This document shows, one piece after another, positions 20,566 to 20,765 of a stretch of DNA of 38,110 nucleotides (position 1 is its first letter; every line of letters begins with the position of its first letter). The translations under genes were made by a program, and so were the position numbers. Source of the DNA: Vulcanimicrobiota bacterium (GTDB lineage Bacteria > Vulcanimicrobiota > SpSt-956 > JAKJGF01); NCBI GenBank assembly GCA_040217695.1, contig JBEHWO010000021.1:1-38110 (forward strand), given 5' to 3'. The notes beneath the pieces were generated by a model that worked only from the letters and a program-made list of their open reading frames with translations, did no database searches and was not told the origin of the DNA.

Positions 20566-20765
20566 TATCCGAAAAGTCATCAAATACCTTCCGGGGGGTG
20601 AGACTCTTCCGAAAAATCTATAATCCTCGTGCAAAACAACCTGTTCTTACAGACTGCTACGATATTACATTTATTTAATTTACAAATTACTGTTAATACG
20701 GTATATATTTTTCTCCAGAGCCTCACCCCCCGGAAGGGTGTACAATAAATATTACTTTTCGGATA
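20566..20765. other. About 200-bp element with long-range inverted repeats (candidate structured ncRNA or MITE-like element)
   Basis: The outer arms are TATCCGAAAAGT (20566-20577), whose reverse complement lies at 20754-20765; this pairing is 12/12. The inner arms are ACCTTCCGGGGGGTGAGACTCTTCCGAAAAAT (20586-20617) and ATTTTTCTCCAGAGCCTCACCCCCCGGAAGGGT (20707-20739); this pairing is about 27/32. An 87-nt central segment separates them. The element lies in the 850-bp non-coding gap between lepA and the MVP gene. Confidence 0.5.

Follow-up and report, generated by a model that had tools for sequence, protein, structure and literature searches.

MITEs are about 50–600 bp in size and are usually present in high copy number. 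The Correia elements of Neisseria are roughly 100–200 bp long, with TIRs of ~26 nt and a TA-containing target duplication. They occupy promoter-proximal intergenic positions in hundreds of copies, contain defined promoters and IHF sites, and give rise to hairpin transcripts that influence the expression of neighboring genes. Promoters, transcription and direct repeats of 2–3 nt have all been amply recorded for bacterial MITEs, which also donate promoter elements; Neisseria Correia repeat-enclosed elements are mentioned in the same paper (PMC5896051). Target duplications of 2–4 bp, typically 3 bp, and rich in A/T are described for the IS5 family (IS1031/IS427), with a 3-nt target being typical of its IS1031 group (PMC2516522), and most members of the related PHIS superfamily have 3-bp TSDs (PMC4482050).

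We analyzed a 38,110-nt stretch of contig JBEHWO010000021.1 (hereafter, the window), in which an element lies in the spacer between the divergent genes for LepA and an MVP homologue (Table 1). Like bacterial MITEs such as Coxiella QMITE1, this element is small, non-coding and intergenic, has TIRs and a long hairpin, is bounded by short direct repeats (2–3 nt) and shows presence/absence polymorphism between strains (PMC5896051). A possible co-transcription with its neighbors, or a contribution to their promoters, would be a further likeness to bacterial MITEs. The host differs from that of Coxiella QMITE1, being an uncultivated Eremiobacterota (Vulcanimicrobiota) lineage, and, unlike the described MITE families, the element has an apparent copy number that is very low and has no detectable sequence similarity to them. 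It resembles the Correia elements in its small size, TIRs and TA-containing duplication; their high copy number and their defined IHF sites and promoters are points of difference, as is the lack of any sequence relationship.

An earlier note on this DNA had described a panhandle-like inverted repeat of about 200 nt in a gap of ~850 bp upstream of the MVP gene, and had proposed either a structured RNA, 6S-like or vault-RNA-like, or a MITE. All the sequences that it quoted are present where it placed them, and the gap measured 852 bp. The combination of TIRs, a target-site duplication, the lack of coding capacity and orthologous empty sites is the diagnostic anatomy of a MITE, and we consider it very probable that the element is a MITE, that is, a 210-bp non-coding, non-autonomous DNA transposon.

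Table 1. Coordinates of the element, its repeats and the neighboring features in the window.
Feature	Position	Strand	Remark
HemN-like radical-SAM gene	17366-18640	-	mechanical ORF of 424 aa
lepA	18679-20484	-	
lepA-MVP spacer	20485-21336		852 bp
Promoter-like TTGACA-16-TATTCT	20504-20531	+	also in empty-site locus L011
Left target-site duplication copy, TAA	20558-20560		single TAA in relatives; flank alignments overlap by exactly 3 nt
Inserted element, 210 bp, non-coding	20561-20770		orthologous sites in relatives are empty; ORFs of at most 48 aa
Left terminal inverted repeat GAGCTTATCCGAAAAGT	20561-20577	+	15/17 against the reverse complement of 20754-20770
Left subterminal inverted repeat, GC-rich core CCTTCCGGGGGGTGAG	20587-20622	+	36 nt, 86% complementary
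Second TCCGAAAAAT motif, within the left subterminal repeat	20608-20617	+	direct repeat of TCCGAAAAGTC / TCCGAAAAATC
AT-rich central core, 79 nt, 32% GC	20623-20701		without a long pairing partner
Right subterminal inverted repeat	20702-20737	-	partner of 20587-20622; from alignment of the two ends
Right terminal inverted repeat	20754-20770	-	reverse complement is GAACCTATCCGAAAAGT
Right target-site duplication copy, TAA	20771-20773		from comparison with relatives
Promoter-like TTGACA-17-TAAATT	20837-20809	-	also in empty-site locus L011
MVP-like gene	21337-23796	+	
CGTNACG arrays	15914-15934, 17357-17377, 18572-18592, 20969-20996, 21229-21256, 27483-27496		
CGTNACG arrays, continued	27581-27608, 30796-30816, 36175-36202, 36322-36335, 37804-37831		

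The window is a complete contig of a ‘Candidatus Eremiobacterota’ MAG, and its LepA and MVP proteins are identical to MEQ8187136.1 and MEQ8187137.1, respectively. The MVP homologue has 819 aa, with matches to MVP_shoulder (3.6e-27), Vault_3 and, weakly, Band_7/SPFH. Its gene adjoins lepA divergently in all the Eremiobacterota relatives that were fetched. MVP homologues are abundant across bacteria, with 6846 matches at E ≤ 1e-10, many of them 62–75% identical, and their hosts include Desulfobacterales, Riflebacteria, Magnetoovum and others.

The ~200-nt unit of the earlier description is real, and its boundaries were refined to a 210-bp element at 20561-20770 that has 38% GC and is flanked on both sides by TAA. 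The perfect 12-bp outer pairing of TATCCGAAAAGT (20566-20577) with its exact complement (20754-20765) was confirmed and extends to the 17-nt terminal repeats. TATCCGAAAAGT occurs nowhere else in the window, for which the chance expectation is 0.29 matches even with one mismatch allowed. The imperfect inner pairing was likewise confirmed and measured 36 nt per arm; it centers on a perfect 16-bp GC-rich core, and a search of the window found CCGGGGGGTGAG restricted to the two inner-repeat arms. Over their whole length, the left 62 nt of the element align with the reverse complement of its right 69 nt with one spacer indel. A TCCGAAAA(A/G)T motif is located in the terminal repeat and recurs ~40 nt inward of the left end, an arrangement that repeated binding sites for a transposase would show. 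As had been stated previously, the element has no coding potential, the longest ORF within it being 48 aa, and it has no capacity to encode a transposase.

Folding, which had been proposed as a check on both strands, gave for 20550-20785 -79.6 kcal/mol (z = -8.62) for the + strand and -82.7 kcal/mol (z = -7.71) for the - strand, and on neither strand were any of the 200 shuffled sequences as stable. The nesting of inverted repeats is genuine and greatly exceeds what chance would produce. The “panhandle” fold arises because the ends of the element are ~65-nt inverted copies of each other, and it need not imply an RNA function.

The orthologous loci of relatives were reached via LepA and MVP homologues, as the divergent lepA-MVP pair is conserved in them. 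The element was absent, with base precision, from six related lineages that share this pair. In these relatives the sequence corresponding to window positions 20485-20560 is contiguous with that from 20771 onward, the two alignments overlapping by exactly 3 nt, and there is one TAA where the window has a TAA on both sides of the element: the relatives read ...CACTTAATAA-TAA-ATAAATT..., and the window reads ...CACTTAATAA-TAA-[GAGCTTATCC...GGATAGGTTC]-TAA-GTAATTT.... The flanks of the empty sites are 95–96% identical to the window in locus L011 (whose LepA differs at 5 of 601 residues), 93–97% in L021, 92–97% in L022-L027, 87–88% in L012 and 83–88% in L007-L010, and in L005/L006 the right flank is 97.5% identical over 566 nt. 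The lepA-MVP spacer is roughly 530–640 bp in the relatives versus 852 bp in the window, in agreement with the missing 210-bp element. The length of the target duplication is ambiguous, as an element of 210 bp with TAA and one of 211 bp with TA fit the junctions equally.

Together, these alignments indicated that the insertion is specific to the lineage of the window strain, with four of six defining features of MITEs found: a small non-coding unit, TIRs, a target-site duplication and insertion polymorphism. Presence and absence alone carry no direction, and an element that was ancestral to the spacer might have been lost from the relatives by precise excision or deletion, either through recombination between the flanking TAA repeats or through transposase-mediated excision. 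We regard this as very improbable. Losses with base precision would have had to occur independently at least four to six times, at nested levels of divergence (88–97% flank identity) and each leaving one TAA, and a single gain in the window's lineage, being one event, is far more parsimonious. In addition, the two copies of the element that are known (see below) differ at only 3 of 210 nt, as would be expected if the element is young. Even if the element had been lost from the relatives rather than gained, it would still be mobile DNA.

The empty sites also bear on the proposal of a dedicated small RNA gene. The RNA would be either 6S-like, with a closing stem and a central region mimicking an open promoter, or a vault-RNA-like partner for the MVP homologue next to it. 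In keeping with an RNA gene, both strands are predicted to fold very stably, a conserved promoter-like sequence (TTGACA-16-TATTCT) reads into the element, and the element adjoins the MVP homologue. However, the element is missing from six lineages that keep lepA and MVP (86–97% protein identity), from which it follows that MVP does not need the element. The element has a target duplication at its boundaries, a feature foreign to RNA genes, and it lacks a terminator-like site. The two strands are about equal in how well they fold, as is expected of any DNA palindrome; two G-U pairs are gained in the outer stem of the + strand and one in the inner stem of the - strand, which was uninformative as to strand.

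Rfam scans were conducted on the whole window at gathering thresholds and on 20400-21400 permissively at E up to 10. No family reached its gathering threshold anywhere in the window. In the permissive scan, neither the 6S covariance models, with their closing stem, central bubble and terminal stem, nor the vault RNA model had a match up to E = 10. Several sub-threshold matches in these scans were rejected. Those to plant-miRNA hairpins (25.6 and 21.8 bits versus thresholds of 60–70) were artefacts of the hairpin and heptamer repeats, and a match to lysM-TM7 at 20853-21000 on the + strand (28.2 bits versus a gathering score of 61.5, E = 0.007) was probably spurious. The latter spans the hairpin of a heptamer array at 20969-20996.

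The element has only its size of ~200 nt and the prediction of a long closing helix in common with 6S and vault RNAs. It differs from them in the lack of a covariance match, in not being conserved in relatives and in its target duplication, and its inner region does not form a helix-bubble-helix. The conservation in close relatives that is a trait of 6S RNA was absent at all the orthologous loci, and the co-occurrence with MVP that a vault RNA would show fails in the relatives. The reading as an RNA gene is largely refuted by the empty sites, and we find it scarcely credible for either RNA. As little credence can be given to a reading in which the element, having inserted between the promoter-like sites of lepA and MVP, is transcribed into a hairpin that is processed to a stable double-stranded RNA of ~200 nt and has been co-opted as a regulator or as MVP cargo. 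Such an RNA could regulate MVP or lepA in cis, e.g., via RNase III, or be packaged in the MVP shell.

One further copy of the element was found, on a contig of the sibling MAG ER1 (JBEHWP010000821.1, positions 1-3104; 3.1 kb, 5.8x coverage; hereafter L002). This copy is identical to that of the window at 207 of 210 nt, and the 64 nt before it are identical to the left flank in the window. Two of the three substitutions, at 20637 and 20684, are in the core; the third, G20762 to A, is in the right TIR, where it breaks the outer-stem pair with C20569 and is not compensated, which is a further argument against an RNA gene. The number of differences between the two copies is consistent with the element being young.

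The order of features on L002/L019 is a window-like lepA flank, the MITE, a rearranged GNAT upstream region and GNAT, then a B12-binding gene of which the first 74 aa are present, followed by a T3SS/FliI-type ATPase and finally a resolvase. L002 diverges from the window after ...GGTTC-TAA-GT. Its right junction is GGTTC-TAA-GTTATGAAATACACTATAA, and relatives L013-L017, in which GNAT is followed by B12-binding, MtaB and RACo genes, read ...CCAA-TAA-GTTATGAAATACACTATAA... upstream of GNAT. Based on these alignments, we tentatively assign the right junction of L002 to a different TAA target, and hence to a second insertion site, on a contig that is mosaic and of low coverage. The lepA-MVP contig of ER1 itself (L021) has an empty site and a different left-flank allele, which indicates that the left part of L002 came from a window-like strain. 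The simplest reading, which is tentative given that L002 is mosaic elsewhere as well, is that L002 joins the left flank of one copy to the right flank of another via the shared element, by recombination or by chimeric assembly; the contig may reflect a true hot-spot of rearrangement or, at its low coverage, an assembly chimera. The same GNAT protein as on L002 is also carried by a second contig, and P0241 has both NCBI and Logan sources.

To search more widely, we used an exact two-arm pattern (24 specified bases, with a gap of 105–135 nt) to scan 185,579 species, with one genome each, and 241 million metagenome records, and L002 was the sole related sequence recovered. The other matches to the pattern (L001, L003 and L004) were rejected as unrelated, chance GC-rich palindromes. 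The window contains one copy, and the other related loci that were fetched, ~190 kb in total, contain none. A match to the TIR at 15 of 16 nt in L013 (12472-12487) has no inverted partner and was attributed to chance. The pattern scan of viral contigs found nothing, plasmid blastn gave only one chance match of 27 nt, and no similarity to described families was seen in the plasmid, viral, genome and metagenome searches. The MITE proposal of the earlier note is supported by the empty sites together with the target-site duplication, even though one further copy was found and not the many near-identical copies that the note had named as an indication of a MITE.

The 3-bp A/T-rich duplication, TAA, is like that of IS5 (IS1031/IS427) and of its eukaryotic relatives, PIF/Harbinger with the Tourist-type MITEs. 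It suggests a source that is either of the IS5 family (IS1031/IS427-like) or a TA-targeting, IS630-like element, and we view an IS5-family element of the IS1031/IS427 type as the most plausible source, with the IS630-like element as the alternative. The left end of the element starts with GAG, as do the ends of IS1031-group elements. The derivation from IS5 is one that we only infer, as no transposase gene or full-length IS with the termini of the element was found. A TA duplication of the IS630/Tc1-mariner type fits the junctions equally, and if the 211-bp element with TA were the correct fit, the source would be of the IS630/mariner type. There is no transposase gene in the 38-kb window, and searches of plasmids and viruses for a transposase with matching ends were empty.

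We propose that a DDE-type transposase encoded elsewhere would act in trans on the element. It would recognize the 17-nt terminal repeats, and a further contribution to recognition would probably come from the subterminal repeats of the TCCGAAAA(A/G)T motif. This enzyme would make staggered cuts at a TAA (or TA) within the AT-rich DNA between lepA and MVP, and the target would be duplicated during gap repair.

The missing transposase partner, the apparently low copy number and the resolvase gene on the mosaic contig (L002/L019) could instead point to a palindromic insertion that does not depend on a DDE transposase, such as a PATE (IS200/IS605-type), a REP/BIME-like or integron attC-like sequence, or a remnant of site-specific recombination. 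We judge an origin of this kind to be very unlikely. The element has both TIRs and a target duplication, and IS200/IS605-type elements and REPs are not known to have either. Sites of the attC type are shorter and sit in cassette arrays. In addition, no integrase, integron or TnpA(Y1)/TnpB gene was found near the element.

The MITE landed between two face-to-face promoter-like sites, both with perfect TTGACA -35 hexamers (Table 1), and the TTGACA of the + strand site is invariant across the alignment of relatives. From the positions of these sites, an empty site would give lepA and MVP leaders with an antisense overlap of ~65 nt, and in the filled state the element would probably be co-transcribed in the leader of lepA and/or MVP. 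We speculate, based on this arrangement, that the element is probably transcribed as a strong hairpin in the 5' leader of lepA, MVP or both. The insertion also creates a hybrid promoter-like site toward lepA, in which TTGATG from the element (20583-20578) is combined with TATTAT from the flank (9/12). It is thus conceivable, if speculative, that the element supplies a -35 hexamer toward lepA.

The window also contains eleven tandem arrays of the heptamer CGTNACG, each of 2–4 units and built on the palindrome ACGCGT. All of the arrays are intergenic if that at 18572-18592 is counted as such, which depends on a shorter start of the HemN-like gene. The 424-aa mechanical ORF of this gene is the same in L005, and the gene is called at 378–384 aa in L007, L011, L012 and L022; with the shorter start, the array falls in the spacer toward lepA. 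Heptamer arrays were also observed in relatives L002, L005, L007 and L013, and in some cases the array is followed by a -10-like motif, TGAAATAnACTATAA(T), that lies immediately before a gene (MVP in the window and GNAT in L013). The arrays resemble the dispersed heptamer repeats of the STRR type in cyanobacteria, or a regulator-binding array, and are probably more unusual than the MITE.

The element is ordinary mobile DNA and its adjacency to MVP is incidental, which disposes of the tempting but mistaken idea that a bacterial MVP homologue has a “bacterial vault RNA” at its side. By itself the element matters little, and nothing suggests new biology. This so far undescribed MITE of an uncultivated Eremiobacterota lineage has been active recently and has an apparently low copy number. 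A recently active MITE implies that there is an active transposase in the population of this Eremiobacterota/Vulcanimicrobiota lineage, and the filled or empty site is a handy marker among strains whose LepA proteins are about 97–99% identical. Finally, with an insertion between the promoter-like sites of two genes that diverge, the locus may serve as a natural experiment on the effects of leader hairpins.
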